Positions 17,444 through 25,329 of a DNA stretch of 40,535 bases are shown piece by piece. The stretch lies in NCBI GenBank assembly GCA_032185465.1, contig GCA_032185465.1_4549.1; one strand, 5' to 3'. The notes beneath the pieces are model-generated. The model was not told the origin of the DNA. It saw only the letters and a program-made list of their open reading frames with translations, and did not search any database. The DNA is from a phage. The translations under genes were made by a program, and so were the position numbers. How positions within the stretch are numbered: position 1 is the first letter of the stretch; the number at the start of each line of letters is the position of its first letter.

Positions 17444-20125
17444 TTAAGCGAATGCAAAGTCTGAAGACAAGATGTCTTCGATATTCAGTTTACCTTTCTT
17501 CGGAAGCTCAGGCAACTTGTCGCGCTGACTTTCATGAAGCTGGTATTCAAACTGCTCGTAGAAGTCAAGCAGCACATCGTTATCGCGGTAAGTCTCTACC
17601 ATCGTCTCACGGACGCCACGGAACAGATACTCAGCGTCAGCCGGGATGGTCCCGAAGCTATCGTGAATCACTGCGAATGACATCACGCCATACTTTCGGT
17701 GAGTGTGGACTACAGTCTTGCGGAGGTGGCTACCATCTTGTGAGTGGACGAAGTTCGGGCTAATGCCTGACTCCTGCTTGTGCTTGTCCAGCTCTTTCTT
17801 CGTACCTTTGTTGACCGTAGGTTGAAGGTTGAAGGACCCTAAGAACATCAGGTTCAGACGAGTGGTATCCTTCTTGCGGTATTCCTGCCAGACCGGGAAC
17901 CCATCAGGTGTGACCCAGTGTACCGGAAGGCATGGCTTCAGGATTTCACCAGTCTTCTTGTCCTTCACTTCAGCAGCCAGCAGCTTGGCGGCACCTTGAA
18001 GCCACTTCATCGCGTCAACCGCAGCAACTACTGTCACACTCACAGCTTCCCAAATCATCTTAGCCATGAAGCGAGACGCTTGGCTTGGCTCGGTGAACAT
18101 TGCTCCCTTACCGGAGTCAATCGCTGGCATCACGGTGTCTTCGAACACTTGGTCGGCGAACCCATACTCTTTCGACCCGTAGGCCAGAGTCATGACCGAG
18201 CGCTTAGTGACCGAGCGAGACATACCGAATTGCAGCCACTGACGCGCAAGACTCTTGGTCCCAAGCTTCAGGCGTTCGCTGATTTCCCCAGTCTTCTTGT
18301 CCTCTACGGTCACCAGCTCGTCGTCCGTACCGCTCAGTAATAGCTCTTTCAACTGGTCTGACACACGGTCTGAGACTATACGGTAGATGTCCTGCACCTG
18401 ACCAGACGGCGTTAAGTTCACTGCATGTCCGCCTACGTGGTCCCTCAGCATCGCGCTGAAGTGCTGAATCCCCGAACACGAGCCGTCGAAGGCAATCGGA
18501 AGTGAGCAATTGTAGGTCAAGCCATGGTTCATCACCCCAGAATACTCGAAGCAAGCCGCTAGGAAGCAGAAGGGGCTGTCCATACTCCCCCACCACTCGA
18601 TGCTGTCCATCGGTGATTTGGCTGCTGCCAGAATGTTCTCGTGATTGTCTTCCACCCATTTGATACGCTCCTCAAAGGTTACCTTATCGACACCCGCGCA
18701 GTTGGCGGTGTGGACTTTAAGCCATTTGAAACCATCCGCCCCGATAGGCTTTCCGACCGCCAGAGTCAGTAGACCCTTCTGCATGTCGTTACCCTGAGGG
18801 TTGAACATCGGGACAGCGTAGACACGACCTCGCCAATCCATGTTGTACGGGAACCAGATGGCCTTAAACTGTGAGAACTTGTTGGCCTGTGATACGATGA
18901 AACTCATGGACAATCTGCGTGACTGTCTGGCCTTCTCGCGGCGATAGATACCAGCAGCAGCCTTCTTCCATGCCTTGAGTTCCTCCTCGGTTTCACCAGA
19001 ATAGTCCTCAGGCTTCAGCGGTTCCATCTGAGGGATGTCATCAATAGGCGTGTTGTTCAGCTTCTCGACCATGTTCACCACGTCCAGAACCTTCTTGTTA
19101 ACTTTCCAAGGTGTATTCTGAATGATGTTCACAGCGTCATAGACTTCAGGCATGTATACGTCTTCATAACGTGCTACCGCAGACTTAGACCCTAAGCGAA
19201 TCAATGGTAACGGTCTGCGACCTTTGGCCCAGTACCCACCACCTACGACACCAGTCCACGGCTTAGGTGGAACGACGCAAGGCTGGTAGACTGGAGCGAT
19301 ACCCGCAAGGCTGAATCCTCGTTGTGCCATCTTCTTGACCCAGAAGTCTGACAGGTGGACCATCTCTACGTCAGCCGCTGCATTACCAGCACCGTACCGC
19401 TTAAGCTCGACCAGTTGTGTTGACTGGATGACAATCTCGAGCATCTTGATGCCAACGTGGACAGCCTCTGTAGGACTCCAAGTCCCCCATGCATCTTCCA
19501 GTTGGCCTTGCTCCAGCATGGACGCCTCGACCGCTTGCATGTAGGCTTTCTTGTAGGATGCCCCAGCTCGCTTGTTCAGGTTCTCAGCTATCGCCTTCTT
19601 GAAGTGCTCCTTCTCTTTGTCACGGATGCGACCGAAGCGGATTTCGTCCTCAAGTGTGCGACCTATCGCGGAGGCCATCGGTGTAATCGGTATCCCTTCA
19701 GGCTTGACCAGCTTGGAGAGTATGACCTTCAGTATGATAACCGCAGCGGACTCACAGGAGATGCGCATAGAGCGGTCCTTTACGGCCTTCTCTTCAGTGC
19801 TCAACATGGTGAACGCTACGCTAGGACGCGAGGTTGACAGCTTCCCGTCTAGGCCTTCGTGCCACTCCCTGACGGCTTGCGCAATCTTAGGGACCAGAGT
19901 CTGCATCAAAGGCTTGGCGACCTGATTGTCTGCCAGTTCCCCGCGCTCAGTCTGCCGCTCAAGGTTCTTGATGAAACGTCGCTCGCCTTCTGTATATGCC
20001 TCATGCTCAAGCTGAAGCTGTTTGACTGCAAGGTCTTGCCCGTAGTGGTCAGCCAGCAGGTTAAACGGCTCAATGGCGTTCGACACATCAGAGAAGTCGT
20101 GTTTGTCAATAGAGATGACGCTCAT
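17444..20125 (-). CDS. T7-type single-subunit DNA-directed RNA polymerase, gp1-like
   Basis: 893 aa; near full-length colinearity with T7 RNAP (KARKSRR, WFPYNMDWRGRVYA, LPLAFDGSCSGIQHFSAMLRD, VTKRSVMTLAYGSKEFGF, PNFVHSQDGSHLRKTVV, HDSFGT, C-terminal FAFA). Confidence 0.98.
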   Translation of the reverse strand: MSVISIDKHDFSDVSNAIEPFNLLADHYGQDLAVKQLQLEHEAYTEGERRFIKNLERQTERGELADNQVAKPLMQTLVPKIAQAVREWHEGLDGKLSTSRPSVAFTMLSTEEKAVKDRSMRISCESAAVIILKVILSKLVKPEGIPITPMASAIGRTLEDEIRFGRIRDKEKEHFKKAIAENLNKRAGASYKKAYMQAVEASMLEQGQLEDAWGTWSPTEAVHVGIKMLEIVIQSTQLVELKRYGAGNAAADVEMVHLSDFWVKKMAQRGFSLAGIAPVYQPCVVPPKPWTGVVGGGYWAKGRRPLPLIRLGSKSAVARYEDVYMPEVYDAVNIIQNTPWKVNKKVLDVVNMVEKLNNTPIDDIPQMEPLKPEDYSGETEEELKAWKKAAAGIYRREKARQSRRLSMSFIVSQANKFSQFKAIWFPYNMDWRGRVYAVPMFNPQGNDMQKGLLTLAVGKPIGADGFKWLKVHTANCAGVDKVTFEERIKWVEDNHENILAAAKSPMDSIEWWGSMDSPFCFLAACFEYSGVMNHGLTYNCSLPIAFDGSCSGIQHFSAMLRDHVGGHAVNLTPSGQVQDIYRIVSDRVSDQLKELLLSGTDDELVTVEDKKTGEISERLKLGTKSLARQWLQFGMSRSVTKRSVMTLAYGSKEYGFADQVFEDTVMPAIDSGKGAMFTEPSQASRFMAKMIWEAVSVTVVAAVDAMKWLQGAAKLLAAEVKDKKTGEILKPCLPVHWVTPDGFPVWQEYRKKDTTRLNLMFLGSFNLQPTVNKGTKKELDKHKQESGISPNFVHSQDGSHLRKTVVHTHRKYGVMSFAVIHDSFGTIPADAEYLFRGVRETMVETYRDNDVLLDFYEQFEYQLHESQRDKLPELPKKGKLNIEDILSSDFAFA

Positions 20126-20194
20126 ACTTAAAGTCCTTGTTATTAGTCTTTCACTTAGAGTCTCTTTGGTCTTTCACTTGGAGTCTTAGACCTT

Positions 20195-20217
20195 GAGTCC
20201 TATAGTGATAGTTAAGT
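20195..20217 (-). promoter_or_regulatory. phage RNAP promoter immediately upstream of the RNAP gene: ACTTAACTATCACTATAGGACTC
   Basis: Near-consensus promoter whose +1 lies about 75 nt upstream of the RNAP ATG; the leader carries a direct repeat gtctttcactt(a/g)gagtct. Confidence 0.7.
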
Positions 20218-20222
20218 CAGAA

Positions 20223-20549
20223 TTACTTGCATATCAGCGGGTTAGCGTGGAGATGACTGAAGTCACCATGAGTCGTGTGCTTGATGGTTGACCGTTGGTC
20301 TATCGCCTTCCAGCCTGAGACTAAAAGTTTACCATCGTCAGTGATTGGTCGTCCACCATACACCAGACACATCAGTTCGGACTTATGGCCCTCAGCCCGG
20401 AGTCTTGCTTGCAGTACCCGGTCCCGCTCCTGCTGTTGACGTGCGGAGTGACTTGACGTTCCGTGACGATACCCGGTAGCCAGTAGGCTTAACATTTGCA
20501 TGTCTGCGTCCATAGAGTGTACCAGATTAATCCCGTATGACTTGTTCAT
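20223..20549 (-). CDS. hypothetical early protein, 108 aa
   Basis: ATG-initiated ORF in the gene 0.7 position; no kinase motifs and no recognised homology. Confidence 0.55.
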   Translation of the reverse strand: MNKSYGINLVHSMDADMQMLSLLATGYRHGTSSHSARQQQERDRVLQARLRAEGHKSELMCLVYGGRPITDDGKLLVSGWKAIDQRSTIKHTTHGDFSHLHANPLICK

Positions 20550-20923
20550 TACAGTTTGCTCCCAAGTGTTGCTGTATCCCAGACGTTCGCTAAGTTACGC
20601 ATGAATCGTCCGTTAGGTTGACGTACAGTCCAGCTACCCAGACGTACATATTTGAATTTGTAGACTTTACGCGCTTTGTTGATGTCTCTCACCAGCACGT
20701 AGGCGATAAGTCCATAGCCTATGGCTATCAATAGTGCGATACTCATAGTCATAAGCCCCATAACAGTTGAGTAAGGACCGGTAGTTTGCAGACTAGAGTA
20801 AACATTCCCCACGCTACGAAGCCTGAGATAGTCCAGATGATTGCAGTGCTCATAGTTAACTCCTATCAATGTAAGTGGTAATCTTTGAGGCCACCTATCA
20901 GTCGATGACCTCTCGTCTATCAC
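20549..20923 (-). CDS. hypothetical early protein with one predicted transmembrane segment (start uncertain)
   Basis: Track ORF starts at GTG 20923; internal ATGs at 20761/20752/20746 precede hydrophobic MSIALLIAIGYGLIAYVLV. Stop overlaps the next ATG (TAATG). Confidence 0.45.
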   Translation of the reverse strand: MIDERSSTDRWPQRLPLTLIGVNYEHCNHLDYLRLRSVGNVYSSLQTTGPYSTVMGLMTMSIALLIAIGYGLIAYVLVRDINKARKVYKFKYVRLGSWTVRQPNGRFMRNLANVWDTATLGSKL

Positions 20924-20985
20924 TCAGTACCATCACGTCAGTGTTATGGTCAAGCTATGATTTGGTTCTCTCCTGTTTATTTAGG

Positions 20986-21213
20986 TTACTCGCCGTCTCC
21001 TTCTGTAAGGCTATCGTCTATTAATTCAAATTTACCGTTTGAGTGTTGGATAGCCTCTTGTCCGCAATGGTCGCAAACCACCAGTTTATCGAACCCGTCA
21101 AACTCGTCACCTGCTACGCAAGAAAGTACGAATTTATGATTGGTGCATACTTCTTGCGTTTCACCGAAAATTGCTCGAAAACCTTTGGTTATGGCACCAG
21201 TGATTGTGTTCAT
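20986..21213 (-). CDS. hypothetical early protein, 75 aa, putative zinc ribbon (C-X7-C ... C-X2-C)
   Basis: ATG at 21213, preceded by the duplicated 70-bp leader element; four Cys arranged as a possible zinc ribbon. Confidence 0.55.
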   Translation of the reverse strand: MNTITGAITKGFRAIFGETQEVCTNHKFVLSCVAGDEFDGFDKLVVCDHCGQEAIQHSNGKFELIDDSLTEGDGE

Positions 21214-21218
21214 ATCTT

Positions 21219-21289
21219 CCCTCTCAGTTGTTAATGACTATCAGTCAGGGCCTTCAGATGTAGACTCAAAGACCCTGTAGTTAATCACT
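21219..21289 (-). repeat. 70-bp conserved leader element, copy 2 (putative RNase III hairpin upstream of second early gene)
   Basis: 69/70 identical to 22041-22110; RNA folds with stem CAGGGUCUU/AAGGCCCUG. Confidence 0.6.
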
Positions 21290-21525
21290 ATCGCTAGCAA
21301 GTATCGCGCTTCATCATCTCGTAGCACCCGTCGTAGAACGCTTGTTCGCTGCTATAAGTTATCTGGTGCATTGTTGGTTATCCTCATCGTGTAAGCTGTC
21401 GTGTATACGCTTGCGGCCCTCGTAGACCGCTTTCAGGTGACGCATAGTCGCATCGTGGTTTAACTGCCCGGTCTTGACCATAAGTCGGGCGTTGGTGACG
21501 TGGTGCTGGCATAAACCGTAAGTTA

Positions 21526-22032
21526 TCATCGCTCGCAGTCCTCAGCCGCAGGGTCGAACACTACGTTATCATTGATGTCTTCCACCTTCAGGTGGCGACC
21601 TGCCGCATAGTTAACCTTGGCACATGCAGTAGCAACCTCAAGAGCTACAGCTTGCACAATTATTGCGCCTGTTTTAGCGTCAACTACCCAATATTCATCC
21701 TCTTCGTCTGCCTCTTCATCCTCAAACCAGACTACATCCAAGCCATTAGACACATCGTTATAAAGCGCCTCATAGATGCGAGCTTGTAGGATACGCGTTA
21801 CGTCCTTGGTTTCAGGCATCATCCCAGAGTCTTCGAACTCGTGGTCTATACCATCAGCAGCCATCACCGTAAAAATCTCGTGGTAATAGTGCGGAACTTG
21901 ACCGTCTACGGCCTCATGCAGCGCATCGCTGTAGTCATCATCTTGAGTCAGGTGGTAGTACTGAATACGCTCGATAAATGCCTCAACGGTTGCAGCCAGC
22001 AGCTCATAGTATGCGTTAGCGTTACGTTCCAT
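21526..22032 (-). CDS. ocr: Ocr-like anti-restriction DNA-mimic protein (gp0.3) with about 50-aa C-terminal extension
   Basis: 168 aa; [45 protein letters not shown] colinear with T7 Ocr, acidic stretch follows; first gene after the host-type promoters. Confidence 0.85.
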
Positions 22033-22040
22033 AGTTATAT

Positions 22041-22110
22041 CCTCTCAGTTGTTAGTGACTATCAGTCAGGGCCTTCAGATGTAGACTCAAAGACCCTGTA
22101 GTTAATCACT
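22041..22110 (-). repeat. 70-bp conserved leader element, copy 1 (R0.3-like hairpin upstream of ocr)
   Basis: Same element as 21219-21289; the preceding GCTCTTTAACAATCTGG block (minus strand) is conserved with the T7 early leader as I recall it. Confidence 0.6.
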
Positions 22111-22226
22111 GTCGGCGCACATTAAGAGTTTATCCAGATTGTTAAAGAGCATTCCCTTCAGTCAGAGGACTTCAGGTAGACCGTTTCAGTGTTGGTCGTC
22201 ACCGTTGTTTCGTGTTGATGTGGTAC

Positions 22227-22256
22227 ATACTACTTTAAGTCGGTACATCTTGTCAA
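22227..22256 (-). promoter_or_regulatory. host sigma70-type early promoter (T7 A2/A3-like): TTGACA-18-TAGTAT
   Basis: Minus strand TTGACAAGATGTACCGACTTAAAGTAGTATGTACCACAT; the -10/+1 context GTACCACAT matches recalled T7 A3. Confidence 0.55.
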
Positions 22257-22368
22257 CTACTTTCTGTCATCTGCCTGTTGTTCGTATGACTTATCAGGCT
22301 GTCTACTTAACCGGGATGACCCGGCGTCTTCACTATCCGGTTGTTGCCGTGTCGTGTTGACGGAAGCT

Positions 22369-22397
22369 ATTAAGCCATAGTCTGGACCTGTAGTCAA
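22369..22397 (-). promoter_or_regulatory. candidate host sigma70-type early promoter (A1 position): TTGACT-17-CTTAAT
   Basis: Perfect -35, weak -10; followed by CCGGTTAAGTAGACAGCCTGATAAGTC, nearly identical to the recalled T7 post-A1 region. Confidence 0.4.
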
Positions 22398-22554
22398 TAG
22401 GTAATCTTAAATAATATTGATTAAGCTATCGTCGGCCCCATAGTGACTAAGAGGATATAGTCTTTGACTAACATGTTTAAGACCTTAAGTCTATAGCTTT
22501 GTGTCTATTAACTGTGGGTCTATGACCGTAGGTGTTGGTGTCTTATGGTTGATA

Positions 22555-22645
22555 CTGTAGGTTAGTTAGACTGTAGGTTGTAGGACTGTAGGTTGTAGGA
22601 CTGTAGGTTGTAGGACTGTAGGTTGTAGGACTGTAGGTTGTAGGA
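22555..22645. repeat. tandem array: 5 perfect copies of 15-bp unit ctgtaggttgtagga plus one degenerate copy
   Basis: Direct reading of 22555-22645; lies just inside the left genome end, like the short repeats next to the T7 terminal repeat. Confidence 0.9.
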
Positions 22646-22649
22646 CCTA

Positions 22650-22867
22650 TGGTTATACAGATAGAGACTCAGAGACAGACCCATAGCCCCTACCTATCGT
22701 CCTGACCTCCAGCCATAGCCTAGACCTATCGTTGACCTAACGTCTTGACCATCGGTCCAACCTTATGATAGACTGGCTGTGACTGCAAGGAGTAGTAACG
22801 GGTAGGGCCTTTGGTCTTGACTTAAAGAGGGCCTATGGGGGAGACTTGAGGTTATTGAACTGTGAGA
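22650..22867 (-). repeat. candidate genome left terminus and direct terminal repeat (concatemer junction near 22867)
   Basis: Minus strand from 22867 reads TCTCACAGTTCAATAACCTCAAGTCTCCCCCATAGGCCCTCTTTAAG, matching the conserved T7/T3 left-end sequence as I recall it. Repeat length and inner boundary are not determinable here. Confidence 0.4.
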
Positions 22868-23106
22868 TGTGGTCTCAAACTTTTGGTCCAAAACTCATCG
22901 TCACTACTGTAGGCCACAGCTACTGTAGGTCAAGGACCGTAGGTCAGGCGACACTAGGATAGACCAATAAGTAGGATGACCCTAAGTGAGCTTCTATTAA
23001 GGTGTTACCTAAAGTCCTTGACTACAGTAGCTAAGGTCAGTAGAGTGAGTCTTTATCCACGTACTGACCTTAGGTCTTCCGCTCATGAATCGTTACCATG
23101 ATTGCG

Positions 23107-23265
23107 TTAATTACACTGAGACACCAGAGAACATACGAGAGTCTCGACCCACCCGACCCACTTACTTCCAGCAGTAACGCCAGCAGCAAGTAGAACAGCA
23201 GCAAGAAACCTGTATGTAGCTCGATTGGTCGCCAGAGCTTTAAGTACAGCTTTGGTCTTTGCCAT
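23107..23265 (-). CDS. small hydrophobic protein, 52 aa (gene 19.5 position)
   Basis: MAKTKAVLKALATNRATYRFLAAVLLAAGVTAGSKWVGWVETLVCSLVSQCN; ATG with GGAGGT upstream, downstream of the phiOR-like promoter. Below the ORF-track cutoff. Confidence 0.45.
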   Translation of the reverse strand: MAKTKAVLKALATNRATYRFLAAVLLAAGVTAGSKWVGWVETLVCSLVSQCN

Positions 23266-23445
23266 ATGCTACATACCTCCTGTATCTATGGTCGGTGACT
23301 ATCTATATTGGAGGGATTATGATTAATATCACCCTCCTTCCATCGGTGCAAGCCTTAGGTAAGAACTCGGAGTCTGCCTCCTAAGGTCTTGCATAAAGTC
23401 TGCATATGTATATTCACTACAGTAATACTATAAGTAACCGGGGGT

Positions 23446-23468
23446 CTTCCCTATAGTGATAGTTAAGT
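23446..23468 (-). promoter_or_regulatory. phage RNAP promoter near the right genome end (phiOR-like): ACTTAACTATCACTATAGGGAAG
   Basis: Consensus match about 100 bp after the large terminase stop. Confidence 0.8.
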
Positions 23469-23562
23469 CCAAACTCCTTATAAAACAGTAGGTTAGACTG
23501 GTAGTAACTATAGGTTACTAACTGCGTATTCATGCAGCTTTCACCCATAGTTATTCATTCAG

Positions 23563-25329
23563 CTAGTGGAACGTAACGTAGGACCCTAGTCCCAGCTCGT
23601 CGTCCGTATCGTGAGTTACCCGGACCCCATTGTCCCAGAACTCAGTGTGGATGGACTCGAAGCCTTTCCGTGGGTTCTCCATCTGTTCCTCCAGCCACTC
23701 CTCAGTGACTTCACGTTCGCCTTTGTTGGCATCCTTAGCCATAGACTCAACGAAGAACTGCACACCGATAGCCAGCGCATCAAGTCGGTCATCGTGTGCC
23801 AATGCTCCACGTTCACGAGAGATACGTGTCATCTGGTAGAAGAGAGAGTAGATAGGATTACGAACACCATCCTTATCAGAGGCAGACTGGTAATCTTGGA
23901 CGATAGCAGCAGCGTTAACGATAAGTCGGTGAGACCCCATGATAGGCTCCAGAACGTCACAGATGCGGAGTTCCTTCTGACCCTTACTCTTCACTTCAGT
24001 TACAGCAGCAGGATGAATACGGGAAGCTACAGGCTTGAATAGCTCAAGGTACATACCATCACCGAAGTTACCCTCAATGACGTATTCGTTGACCTTCCAC
24101 TTACGACCAATCTTAGCCAAGGCTTCCAGCGTAGAGTCTTCATAGCCACCTCGCATACCGCCAACTTCCATAGCGAAGATGTAGCCGTTTAGCTGGTACA
24201 GTACCGCATAACCAGTTTCATCCTTACCACGACCACTAGGGTCAATGACTAGAATCTTCTGGGTGTATGAGCTGAAGGCAGAACCTACAGTCTGATACGT
24301 GTGGTATGAGTCACCCATGAGTCCAACGTTAGGAACGTCCTCACGCTTGTTCTGAGGGTTAGGAAGCCATTGGTATATCATTGGGCTAGACGCTTGGTCC
24401 AAGTCTGCTACGATAAGGTCACGGAGCTTCAGAGGGTACTTCTCGGCATCACTCAGGTTAGGGTTAAGCATGAACTGTAGAGCGAAGCCAGCTTTGCCAT
24501 AGGACAACTCACGTTCCTTCAGGTCCGTATCATCGAATCGTACTTCATCGGTAGGACGCCAGTAGAAGGACTCAGGGTCCTCTTCCAGCTCTGCCTGAAG
24601 CATAGGAGCCAGACGGTCGCCGTAAGACTGCCAGTCCTTCTTATCACGTGGATAACGAGCAGGCCAGATAGTAGTGGTGTATCCACGGCCTTCCAGCTCA
24701 CGATACAAGGTCATCTCATTCTGAGGAGTACCCAGATAGATGATTGTACCTCCCGGCTTCAGGATAGCGTCGAACTCTTTCACAAGCTCTGACAGACGGT
24801 CTCGTGCGGCCTGAGTCGCTGAGTTGTTCGGAACCTCCACGTCATCAGCAATCAGGATGTCAGCACGACTACCAGTCAGCTGACCAGTGATACCAACGGA
24901 CTTAACCGAAGGTGAGTGGTCTGGCTTAGCTGGCCCAACGTCAAAGCTGATAACAGCATCTCGCTGCCCCTGCTTAGGTTTGAGTTCCTGAAGCTGAGGC
25001 ATGAGGTCGATGATTCGCTTGATGAAGATGGAGTTCGCATCGGCTCGTTCCTTTGAGGCCGACACAATCATGAACTTCAAGTCTGGGTTGTTCCATAGCT
25101 TCCAGACCACAAAGCCACAGGTCAGAAACGACTTGCCAATACCACGGAAAGCCTGAAGGATGAAGCGGCGATTATCACCAGCAGCCAGCTTCTTACACAT
25201 ATCTATCTGGCAGCGGGTTGGAACCGGAAGGCTTAGTGCTTTCCAGAGAACGAAGATGAAGAACACGAAGTCGTCCCTCATCCTTTGGGTCATTTCTGCC
25301 TGTCTTTCAGCAGGTGTTTTCTTAGACAT
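23563..25329 (-). CDS. terminase large subunit, gp19-like
   Basis: 588 aa; near full-length colinearity with T7 gp19 ([116 protein letters not shown]). Confidence 0.98.

Follow-up and report, generated by a model that had tools for sequence, protein, structure and literature searches.

The early region of the phage analyzed here raises the question of whether a missing T7 gp0.7-type protein kinase has been replaced by a set of small proteins. An earlier note on this DNA had described only three ORFs between ocr and the phage RNA polymerase gene, all of them unrecognised, and had suggested that they are carried instead of the kinase. It is a reasonable general expectation that early genes of this kind act in host takeover or anti-defence.

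The window, i.e. the whole stretch of 40,535 nucleotides that was analyzed, is a circularly permuted Kayfunavirus genome which shares its gene order and 97–98% nucleotide identity with LM33_P1-type records. Its early-region genes lie on the minus strand, as do all features of this region given below. The region is indeed flanked by ocr (21526–22032) on one side and gene 1 (17444–20125) on the other, the latter an 893-aa ORF for the phage RNA polymerase that bears this annotation in every related record, and the ORFs of 75 aa (20986–21213) and 108 aa (20223–20549) are present as described. The actual number of ORFs between the flanking genes is however six or seven; those of 56 aa (21359–21529), 25 aa (21294–21371) and 34 aa (20749–20853) had been overlooked. 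The complete order is ocr, a gp0.4 homologue, a broken 41-aa gene, the 75-aa gene, a 34-aa peptide, gp0.37, gp0.38, a phage promoter and gene 1. Comparison with orthologues gave pN/pS values of 0.29 for the 56-aa, 0.20 for the 25/41-aa, 0.38 for the 67-aa and 0.29 for the 108-aa ORF; these ORFs are more than chance reading frames. Nor are the early ORFs unrecognised, being already annotated as gp0.35, gp0.37 and gp0.38 of K1F and as members of the PHROG families 5058, 2385, 7066 and 32657. Profile and structure searches, which had been proposed for these ORFs, resulted in the PHROG matches and the homology to gp0.4, whereas scans of all small ORFs with Pfam, NCBIfam and PADLOC gave nothing meaningful and searches against PDB sequences and with Foldseek gave no match.

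The absence of a gp0.7-type kinase from the window was confirmed. In tblastn searches against the whole window, T7 gp0.7 and the 244-aa Kayfunavirus kinase produced noise only (best E values of 0.37 and 1.8, respectively). None of the window ORFs matched the kinase PHROGs 2828, 15752 and 18305, against which T7 gp0.7 and the kinase of the related locus L013 scored 1.6e-169 and 4.5e-114 as positive controls. The silence of Pfam is uninformative in this respect because the copy used misses T7 gp0.7 itself. Finally, no ORF of about 240 aa or more exists between gene 0.3 and gene 1, where the largest comprises 108 aa.

That the small ORFs stand in for the kinase is not supported by close relatives, which carry the kinase as well as gp0.37 (67 aa) and gp0.38 (108 aa). 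A kinase of about 244 aa, which consists of the kinase domain only, is located upstream of gp0.37 and gp0.38 in six related loci (IMG/VR L013, L014, L019–L021 and L023), and Enterobacter phage B1 contains the kinase, gp0.37 and gp0.38 in the same layout (PMC12785254, Table 1). These kinase-bearing relatives have the gp0.37-gp0.38-gene 1 block and the 41-aa gene in common with the window (PMC12785254), and their gp0.38 is 73–88% identical to that of the window. They differ from it in having a SAM lyase in place of ocr and, at the site of the 75-aa cassette, a gp0.7-type kinase domain of 243/244 aa. Among 27 related loci, the presence of the kinase is independent of gp0.37 and gp0.38. Since the kinase co-occurs with both in close relatives, we regard gp0.37 and gp0.38 as a constant backbone and the kinase as an optional cassette. 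With a probability of roughly three in four, the region is an ordinary Kayfunavirus early operon in which this optional cassette is not carried and for which the small ORFs are not substitutes. In this phage group, the kinase-only 244-aa cassette sits upstream of gp0.37/gp0.38, and it is absent from the lineage of the window. Shut-off of host transcription is probably left to a gp2 homologue, which was found at 13837–13989 in a syntenic position (E 6e-10).

One lead on the kinase, from the gp0.38-bearing Kayfunavirus JSS1, was rejected. JSS1_004 is a gp0.7 homologue with 54% similarity (PMC12345140), but the phage dealt with in that study is a different one, plated on Cerro 87. The record of Kayfunavirus JSS1 (KX689784) contains gp0.38 and no kinase gene.

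We propose that the region constitutes the class I (early, host-RNA-polymerase-transcribed) operon of a Kayfunavirus, built as a mosaic of small gene cassettes. These are parted by hairpins of the RNase III type, which are homologous to R0.3 and R0.5 of T7 and probably double as recombination joints. By homology to T7, the region is presumably transcribed early and its hairpins are predicted to be cleaved by RNase III. Upstream of ocr, a consensus scan yielded a sigma-70-like early promoter candidate (TTGACA-18-TAGTAT, 22227–22256) with 10/12 matches, a weak candidate when taken alone; three host promoters are annotated at the equivalent position in EcoDS1. The ocr gene (gp0.3) encodes the long 168-aa form (PF08684, 3e-29; phrog_2568, 6e-52), which is 80% identical to K1F gp0.3. 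Its leader together with an R0.3-like RNase III-type hairpin (22041–22114) folds as an interrupted hairpin and recurs ahead of the 75-aa gene (21220–21293) as the second copy of a 74-nt direct repeat, D2, whose copies are 97% identical. A third RNase III-type hairpin (20872–20926), identified by folding and compensatory pairs, is orthologous to T7 R0.5 and nearly identical in its lower stem to the R0.5 hairpins of K1F and T7. One consensus structure of 18 pairs, 7 of them with compensatory changes, fits the three hairpins of the window as well as T7 R0.3 and R0.5, and all three are located between ORFs, which is the layout of T7-type RNase III sites. An Rfam search over 20000–23600 gave no match; Rfam holds no model for T7-type RNase III sites. 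No intrinsic terminator was found in the region. Between gp0.38 and gene 1 lies a phage RNA polymerase promoter core (TTAACTATCACTATAGG, 20199–20215), which occurs in 11 copies in the window versus 0.1 expected by chance and whose equivalent is annotated as a phi promoter in EcoDS1.

The arrangement is shared with K1F (AM084414, NC_007456), LM33_P1 (NC_031937) and EcoDS1 (EU734172), which lack a kinase and have the same families in the same order, i.e. gp0.3 ocr, gp0.35, gp0.37/"0.6", gp0.38, phi promoter and gene 1. LM33_P1 also has the 75-aa and 34-aa genes, with 100% amino-acid identity to those of the window. The differences concern single elements. LM33_P1 and K1F possess gp0.2 upstream of ocr, which the window lacks, whereas the window retains a truncated 41-aa gene, unlike the early regions of these three phages. 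Ahead of the 75-aa gene, the window has the full duplicate of the ocr-leader hairpin and LM33_P1 a different hairpin; K1F has no 75-aa gene and, where the window has the 34-aa ORF, carries gp0.36 (55 aa). In comparison with the class I region of T7 (0.3, 0.4, 0.5, 0.6A/B and 0.7, with R0.3, R0.5 and R1), ocr and gp0.4 are found in the same order, the RNase III-type hairpins are homologous, a small membrane protein follows R0.5 and the operon ends at gene 1. The window however lacks both the gp0.7 kinase/shut-off protein and a gp0.6 homologue, its gp0.37, gp0.38 and 75-aa protein have no T7 counterpart, and it has a phage promoter directly upstream of gene 1 where the T7 record shows none between 0.7 and 1.

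Homology to the T7 0.4–0.7 products, which would have spoken against the novelty of the ORFs, exists for one of the overlooked ORFs and was not detected between the three named ones and T7 gp0.5, 0.6 or 0.7. The 56-aa ORF (21359–21529), whose start overlaps the ocr stop (ATGA), corresponds to K1F gp0.35 (phrog_5058, 6.6e-28). Comparison with T7 gp0.4 gave an hhalign probability of 87% (E 4.2e-6) and 37% identity over 41 aa by blastp, and phrog_5058 and the T7 gp0.4 family phrog_7202 cross-match reciprocally (5.6e-5 and 9e-5). Both this similarity and its synteny directly after ocr place the ORF in the gp0.4 family. In K1F, L022, L024 and L009, the stop codon of the gp0.4 homologue lies in the stem of the R0.5 hairpin, like in T7; in the window, the 3' end of the gene has been altered by recombination. 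T7 gp0.4 binds FtsZ and inhibits host cell division, and by analogy the 56-aa protein probably does the same.

The 25-aa ORF (21294–21371) is the 5' remnant of a conserved 41-aa gene, intact orthologues of which are present in 14 loci. Homology to EPr2 breaks at 21294–21295, and the 3' remnant (HSLTITLT*, 20924–20959) matches the final part of this gene in EPr2. Between the two lies a 335-nt cassette (20960–21294) which is absent from EPr2, the alignment resuming on either side of it, and which consists of the second hairpin copy, the 75-aa gene and Kagunavirus-derived flanks. The 41-aa gene is thus split because this cassette has been inserted.

The 75-aa product (20986–21213; phrog_32657) is an acidic Cys/His protein (pI 4.5, net charge -9) and a putative zinc ribbon. 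Of the Cys pattern given for it earlier, the C-X2-C motif holds, whereas the first spacing is C-X8-C and not C-X7-C. C23, H26, C32, C47 and C50 are invariant in all six family members, and the invariant His results in a C-X2-H ... C-X2-C arrangement. A low-confidence AlphaFold2 model from 6 sequences (mean pLDDT 54.7) predicts four short strands flanking the Cys/His motifs. The family is a small one, with only 6 clusters among 5.8 billion proteins, and 57 phage records, of Kayfunavirus as well as Kagunavirus, contain the gene. In the latter genus (Guernseyvirinae), gp58 of XY1 and its relatives in Golestan, phiEc3, K1ind1, Bas73 and Bas75 are 74–93% identical to the 75-aa ORF at the amino-acid level, and the region is 87% identical to XY1 gp58 over 275 nt at the nucleotide level. 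This homology extends over the RBS of XY1 gp59 and ends where the next XY1 gene has its start codon. In vB_EcoS_XY1 and these relatives, the gene is likewise the first of an operon, and a DicA-like repressor gene points away from it in the opposite direction. The phage family and the regulatory context are unrelated to those in Kayfunavirus, where the gene is fused to an RNase III leader of the ocr type and the Kagunavirus RBS downstream of it has been left without its gene. Sequence comparison indicates that the gene has been passed across phage families, between a Kagunavirus siphovirus and a Kayfunavirus podovirus. Transfer from the siphovirus to the podovirus is suggested only by the carried-over downstream RBS and the distribution among phages. 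A second, different insertion site is found in vB_Eco_1RS. Most likely, the 75-aa protein is an E. coli-specific accessory factor with a counter-defence or host-modulating function, and most likely it would bind a host protein via a small acidic zinc-ribbon fold.

The 124-aa ORF (20549–20923) of the earlier note does not hold as a gene. The frame has its GTG start and about 18 initial codons on the conserved R0.5-type RNA hairpin, it is closed by TAA in K1F, and orthologues begin at residues 58–64 of the frame; for these reasons we consider it an artefact, the real protein being 64–67 aa long. This protein is gp0.37 ("0.6"; 20549–20761; phrog_2385, 6.5e-32), a membrane-anchored, basic protein with a Kyte-Doolittle maximum of 2.35 at residues 3–21 and a net charge of +8.5. 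It is 91% identical to K1F gp0.6, is present in 218 phage records and likely starts at the ATG at 20752, overlapping the stop of the 34-aa ORF. The latter (20749–20853) encodes a hydrophobic peptide (Kyte-Doolittle 19-residue maximum 1.82) preceded by a strong RBS (TAGGAG, 7 nt upstream), which is 100% identical in LM33_P1-type loci and 91% identical in L018. Neither the 34-aa nor the 67-aa ORF matched T7 gp0.5 or gp0.6A by blastp, and their PHROGs differ, so that the likeness to T7 gp0.5/gp0.6 is one of position and membrane character only.

Whether the smallest ORFs, of 25 and 34 aa, are all functional genes has to be considered in this context. That some of them are not is a possibility we take seriously, at somewhat less than even odds. 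The 25-aa ORF was shown above to be what is left of the 5' part of a 41-aa gene. The 34-aa ORF had no family match in the PHROG search and has two variant orthologues only, whose 2 synonymous and 3 non-synonymous differences are too few for a firm pN/pS. Its strong Shine-Dalgarno sequence, its hydrophobic helix and the overlap of its stop with the gp0.37 start codon argue however for a real gene, and after the R0.5 hairpin it is placed exactly like the small membrane proteins T7 gp0.5 and K1F gp0.36.

The last early gene encodes gp0.38 of K1F and EcoDS1 (108 aa, 20223–20549; phrog_7066, 7.1e-46), its start overlapping the gp0.37 stop (TAATG). Both gp0.37 and gp0.38 are assigned to their families by profile matches and by their adjacency in most related loci examined, and both AM084414 and EcoDS1 list them under the names 0.37 and 0.38. 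The gp0.38 protein is under purifying selection, with a pN/pS of 0.29 overall and 0.12 in codons 76–108. It occurs in 224 phage records, and a profile HMM search of 1.84 billion proteins gave only 14 clusters at 50% identity, none with an annotated domain. Homologues adjoin gene 1 in Pseudomonas T7-like phages, always beside the RNA polymerase gene; the ORF upstream of them matches phrog_61 and phrog_2297, not a kinase, in the phages examined. It is a basic protein with a charged helix, modeled by AlphaFold2 from a 19-sequence alignment at low confidence (pLDDT 56.0). Foldseek searches against the PDB with the low-confidence models of the 75-aa protein and gp0.38 gave no significant match (best E 3.4 and 0.8) and are uninformative at this model confidence; PDB sequence profile searches with the two alignments gave no match either. 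Most likely gp0.38, possibly together with gp0.37, would target a host component conserved in enterobacteria and Pseudomonas. We found no discussion of gp0.36, 0.37 or 0.38 in the literature, and the accessory-gene preprint of Silas et al. does not mention T7-like phages, Autographiviridae, K1F or zinc.

That three novel small proteins have replaced the kinase and assumed its host-shut-off or anti-defence role is improbable. The ORFs do occupy the 0.5–0.7 position of the T7 map and have no known function and, as gp0.7 kinases are broad anti-defence factors (PMC12345140), absence of the kinase might need compensation. However, gp0.37 and gp0.38 occur alongside the kinase in the six loci and phage B1, the 75-aa gene is a recent insertion in one clade only, and gp0.38 is found in Pseudomonas phages, too. 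Because the Kayfunavirus kinase is an optional cassette coexisting with gp0.37 and gp0.38, we rule out the idea of a replacement. We also reject as very unlikely that gp0.38 corresponds, as a separate and highly diverged protein, to the C-terminal domain by which T7 gp0.7 shuts off transcription. In favour of this reading, the Kayfunavirus kinase (244 aa) lacks such a domain, and gp0.38, which is basic and has a charged helix, is encoded by the last early gene, at the place taken in T7 by the 3' end of 0.7; over 22 residues it also faintly resembles the beginning of the basic segment of T7 gp0.7 (E 0.85). However, hhalign probabilities were just 0.5% for full-length gp0.7 and 0.7% for a profile built from C-terminal domains (residues ~240–359), and the gene upstream is not a kinase in the Pseudomonas phages examined.

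As a discovery, the kinase-less early operon carries little weight, since database records of K1F, EcoDS1, LM33_P1 and over 200 further phages already show the arrangement and its ORFs belong to existing PHROG families. What is gained is a corrected ORF map, with a gp0.4 homologue and a split 41-aa gene added and the 124-aa protein struck out. As a tentative joint reading, the 75-aa protein might be a mobile, E. coli-specific counter-defence or host-modulating factor, traded between unrelated virulent Kagunavirus and Kayfunavirus phages that share encapsulated or ExPEC hosts and taken up on two or more occasions, each time at another site, into the operon that is expressed first. In the same tentative reading, gp0.37-gp0.38 might form a conserved host-takeover module which, in kinase-less and kinase-bearing T7-like phages, would act on a target that enterobacteria and Pseudomonas have in common. 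Candidates for functional study are the 75-aa protein, acquired by horizontal transfer, and gp0.38, which is widely conserved. LM33_P1-type phages are therapeutic candidates against ExPEC, and the function of their early accessory genes is therefore of some applied value.

The long ORFs of the window all lie on its minus strand and, downstream of the terminase gene (23563-25329, minus strand) and a non-coding, repeat-rich stretch, ocr is followed by a series of small ORFs and the 893-aa RNA polymerase gene; the window is a circularly permuted T7-like genome. The interval of about 2 kb from ocr to the polymerase gene is 97-98% identical to that of Kayfunavirus LM33_P1-type phages and matches 243 phage records, whose annotations give the identical gene order and no kinase. 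Our analysis confirmed that a gp0.7 kinase is absent: tblastn searches of the window with T7 gp0.7 and a 244-aa Kayfunavirus kinase gave best E-values of 0.37 and 1.8, respectively, and no window ORF matched the kinase PHROGs, which pick up both T7 gp0.7 and the kinase of the related phages. The negative Pfam result for kinases carries no weight, because the Pfam version used misses gp0.7 itself. The absence is thus real, yet already known for this phage lineage, and an ordinary finding. In addition, a homologue of the host RNA polymerase inhibitor gp2 was found at 13837-13989 using an approximate query sequence, indicating that host shut-off does not depend on gp0.7.

The 244-aa protein, present in six related IMG/VR loci, gives a match to the kinase domain of gp0.7 (31% identity to T7; phrog_15752, 4.5e-114), and its gene lies between a conserved 41-aa gene and gp0.37, followed by gp0.38 and gene 1. 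A corresponding order has been listed for Enterobacter phage B1, in which a 41-aa ORF is followed by a 243-aa protein kinase, ORFs of 53, 64 and 108 aa and the RNA polymerase (PMC12785254, Table 1). The suggestion of the earlier note that small ORFs are carried instead of the kinase does not hold, since gp0.37 and gp0.38 coexist with it in all of these phages and therefore form the constant part of the region. Upstream of them lies a slot that different lineages fill with different cassettes, the kinase being an optional one. Kinase-bearing relatives also encode a DUF7300 protein and a 115-aa helix-turn-helix protein in their early region, and carry an S-adenosylmethionine lyase (PF23780, 5.5e-40) in place of ocr (positions 801-2002 of the IMG/VR locus L013).

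A 'protein kinase' or 'Phage protein kinase' feature is found under the matched interval in LT594300, MZ398247 and MH400309; in the RefSeq copies of two of those genomes (LM33_P1 and Vec13) this label is replaced by 'ocr-like anti-restriction'. Judged from the feature lists, the kinase label of the three records appears to be placed on the ocr gene and to be a misannotation, which could mislead searches for gp0.7. The name JSS1 stands for two different phages (PMC12345140 versus GenBank KX689784): the one in the anti-Dnd kinase papers was plated on strain Cerro 87 and has the gp0.7 homologue JSS1_004 (PMC12345140), whereas Escherichia phage JSS1 (Kayfunavirus PE3-1 species, KX689784) has no kinase gene.

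The ocr gene itself (21526-22032, minus strand; PF08684, 3e-29; phrog_2568) is of the long form with 168 aa, of which the Pfam domain spans residues 8-94 only and the C-terminal 55 or so have no Pfam match; in related phages, ocr is either of this length (169 aa in K1F) or matches at residues 1-103/110 only, e.g. in Escherichia phage JSS1. LM33_P1 and K1F have gp0.2 (81-84 aa) downstream of the early promoters and upstream of ocr, with a copy of the leader hairpin on either side; this gene is missing from the window (22033-22256, compared with 783-1037 of the LM33_P1 locus).

Six ORFs, all on the minus strand, were listed between ocr and the polymerase gene rather than only three, each showing, by direct sequence reading, either a Shine-Dalgarno sequence or an overlap of stop and start codons in the form of ATGA or TAATG; they are described below in the order of transcription. 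These are catalogued hypothetical genes, and the earlier inventory was incomplete and partly wrong. By sequence comparison, the 56-aa ORF (21359-21529) corresponds to K1F gp0.35 and is homologous to T7 gp0.4, as PHROG cross-hits in both directions, blastp (37% over 41 residues) and hhalign (probability 87%, E 4e-6) agree; both genes directly follow ocr, and the stop codon lies inside the R0.5 stem in T7 gp0.4 and likewise in the 56-aa orthologues of relatives. The 25-aa ORF (21294-21371) is the 5' remnant of the 41-aa gene, and the 75-aa ORF (20986-21213) encodes a Cys/His protein on an acquired cassette. The 34-aa ORF (20749-20853) is followed by an ORF of 64-67 aa (20549 to 20752 or 20761), which is K1F gp0.37, alias gp0.6 (91% identity, phrog_2385), whose N-terminus forms a membrane helix and whose tail is strongly basic, and by the 108-aa ORF (20223-20549), gp0.38 of K1F and EcoDS1 (phrog_7066). 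No resemblance to T7 gp0.5, 0.6 or 0.7 was found for the 56-, 67-, 108- and 75-aa ORFs. In the related locus L018 (1403-1805) the 34-aa ORF is directly followed by gp0.38 and gp0.37 is missing, so that the two are separable. Compared with distinct orthologues in related loci, pN/pS was 0.29 for the 56-aa, 0.20 for the 25/41-aa, 0.38 for the 67-aa and 0.29 for the 108-aa ORF, as against 0.35 for ocr; variant orthologues of the 34-aa ORF were too few for a judgement.

The 124-aa ORF proposed earlier is an artefact: the GTG and the codons right after it belong to a hairpin (about 20872-20926), the lower stem of which is nearly the same as in the T7 RNase III site R0.5 and its K1F equivalent. In K1F a TAA closes the same frame just ahead of the next gene, orthologues of the real protein begin at residues 58-64 of this frame, and the K1F annotation gives 65 aa; the 34-aa ORF uses another frame and has its own strong ribosome-binding site downstream of the hairpin. 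A single consensus structure, with compensatory changes at 7 of its 18 pairs, fits the three window hairpins as well as T7 R0.3 and R0.5; among related loci it is the upper stems that vary, the lower stem and internal loop being constant. Copies in LM33_P1 precede gp0.2, ocr and the 75-aa gene, and the left junction of the 75-aa cassette in the window lies inside such a hairpin. By analogy with T7, these hairpins would be cleaved by RNase III, and they also serve as joints for recombination.

Relative to Providencia phage EPr2, the window contains a 335-nt insertion (20960-21294) which splits the 41-aa gene (MYQITYSSEQAFYDGCYEMMKRGACYVANHHSLTITLTGGY), leaving the 25-aa ORF on the 5' side and HSLTITLT* downstream. 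Over its 5' 74 nt the insertion repeats the leader hairpin of ocr (97% identity). The remainder begins 20 nt ahead of the start codon, extends 27 nt beyond the stop and shares 87% identity with gp58 of Kagunavirus vB_EcoS_XY1, the leading gene of an operon that diverges from a gene for a DicA-like repressor. Since this homology includes the ribosome-binding site that serves the following XY1 gene and stops at the start codon of the latter, it points to a transfer from siphovirus to podovirus. In Kayfunavirus vB_Eco_1RS, a 76%-identical version is located elsewhere, with gp0.37 on one side and gp0.38 on the other, suggesting that the gene has been captured repeatedly. The family comprises 6 clusters among 5.8 billion proteins and was found in 57 phage records, almost all from E. 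coli phages, Kayfunavirus or Kagunavirus. The protein is acidic (pI 4.5, net charge -9) with C23, H26, C32, C47 and C50 invariant. A host-specific accessory or counter-defence role would suit a protein that is small, acidic, early, horizontally mobile and essentially confined to E. coli phages.

Two non-coding stretches deserve mention. Between gp0.38 and the RNA polymerase gene, a stretch of 100 nt (20126-20222, minus strand) is 96-100% identical in 19 of 26 related loci, although synonymous sites nearby differ by about 20%; it contains a phage-promoter core (20199-20215) and two copies of a 21-nt unit (20143-20163 and 20166-20186) at a spacing of 23 nt. With a phage promoter immediately ahead of gene 1, where the T7 record lists none, the polymerase would be able to increase its own production. 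In the region that separates the early promoters from the terminase gene, at 22554-22672, a 15-nt unit (GACTGTAGGTTGTAG, plus strand) occurs six times in tandem, resembling the short repeat arrays adjoining the T7 terminal repeats and yielding a spurious 40-aa 'YNLQS' repeat ORF (22562-22684).

Neither gp0.38 nor the 75-aa protein matched any family, solved structure or fold, and their models were unreliable. The C-terminal third of gp0.38 is its most constrained part (pN/pS 0.12); as synonymous change there is still 0.22, it is the protein that is conserved, and the neighbouring promoter does not account for the constraint. In K1F, two single-base indels at the start of gp0.38 distinguish NC_007456 from AM084414 (positions 2200-2300); the gene is broken and unannotated in the former and intact (86 aa) in the latter. 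An exhaustive profile search for gp0.38 gave only 14 clusters at 50% identity, the most divergent leading to Pseudomonas T7-like phages (Pijolavirus, Pifdecavirus), where the homologue is the last or second-last gene ahead of the RNA polymerase gene. As this position is kept across hosts as distant as Escherichia and Pseudomonas, gp0.38 more likely targets conserved host machinery than a strain-specific defence system, and the remaining interest of the region lies in the functions of gp0.38 and the 75-aa protein.
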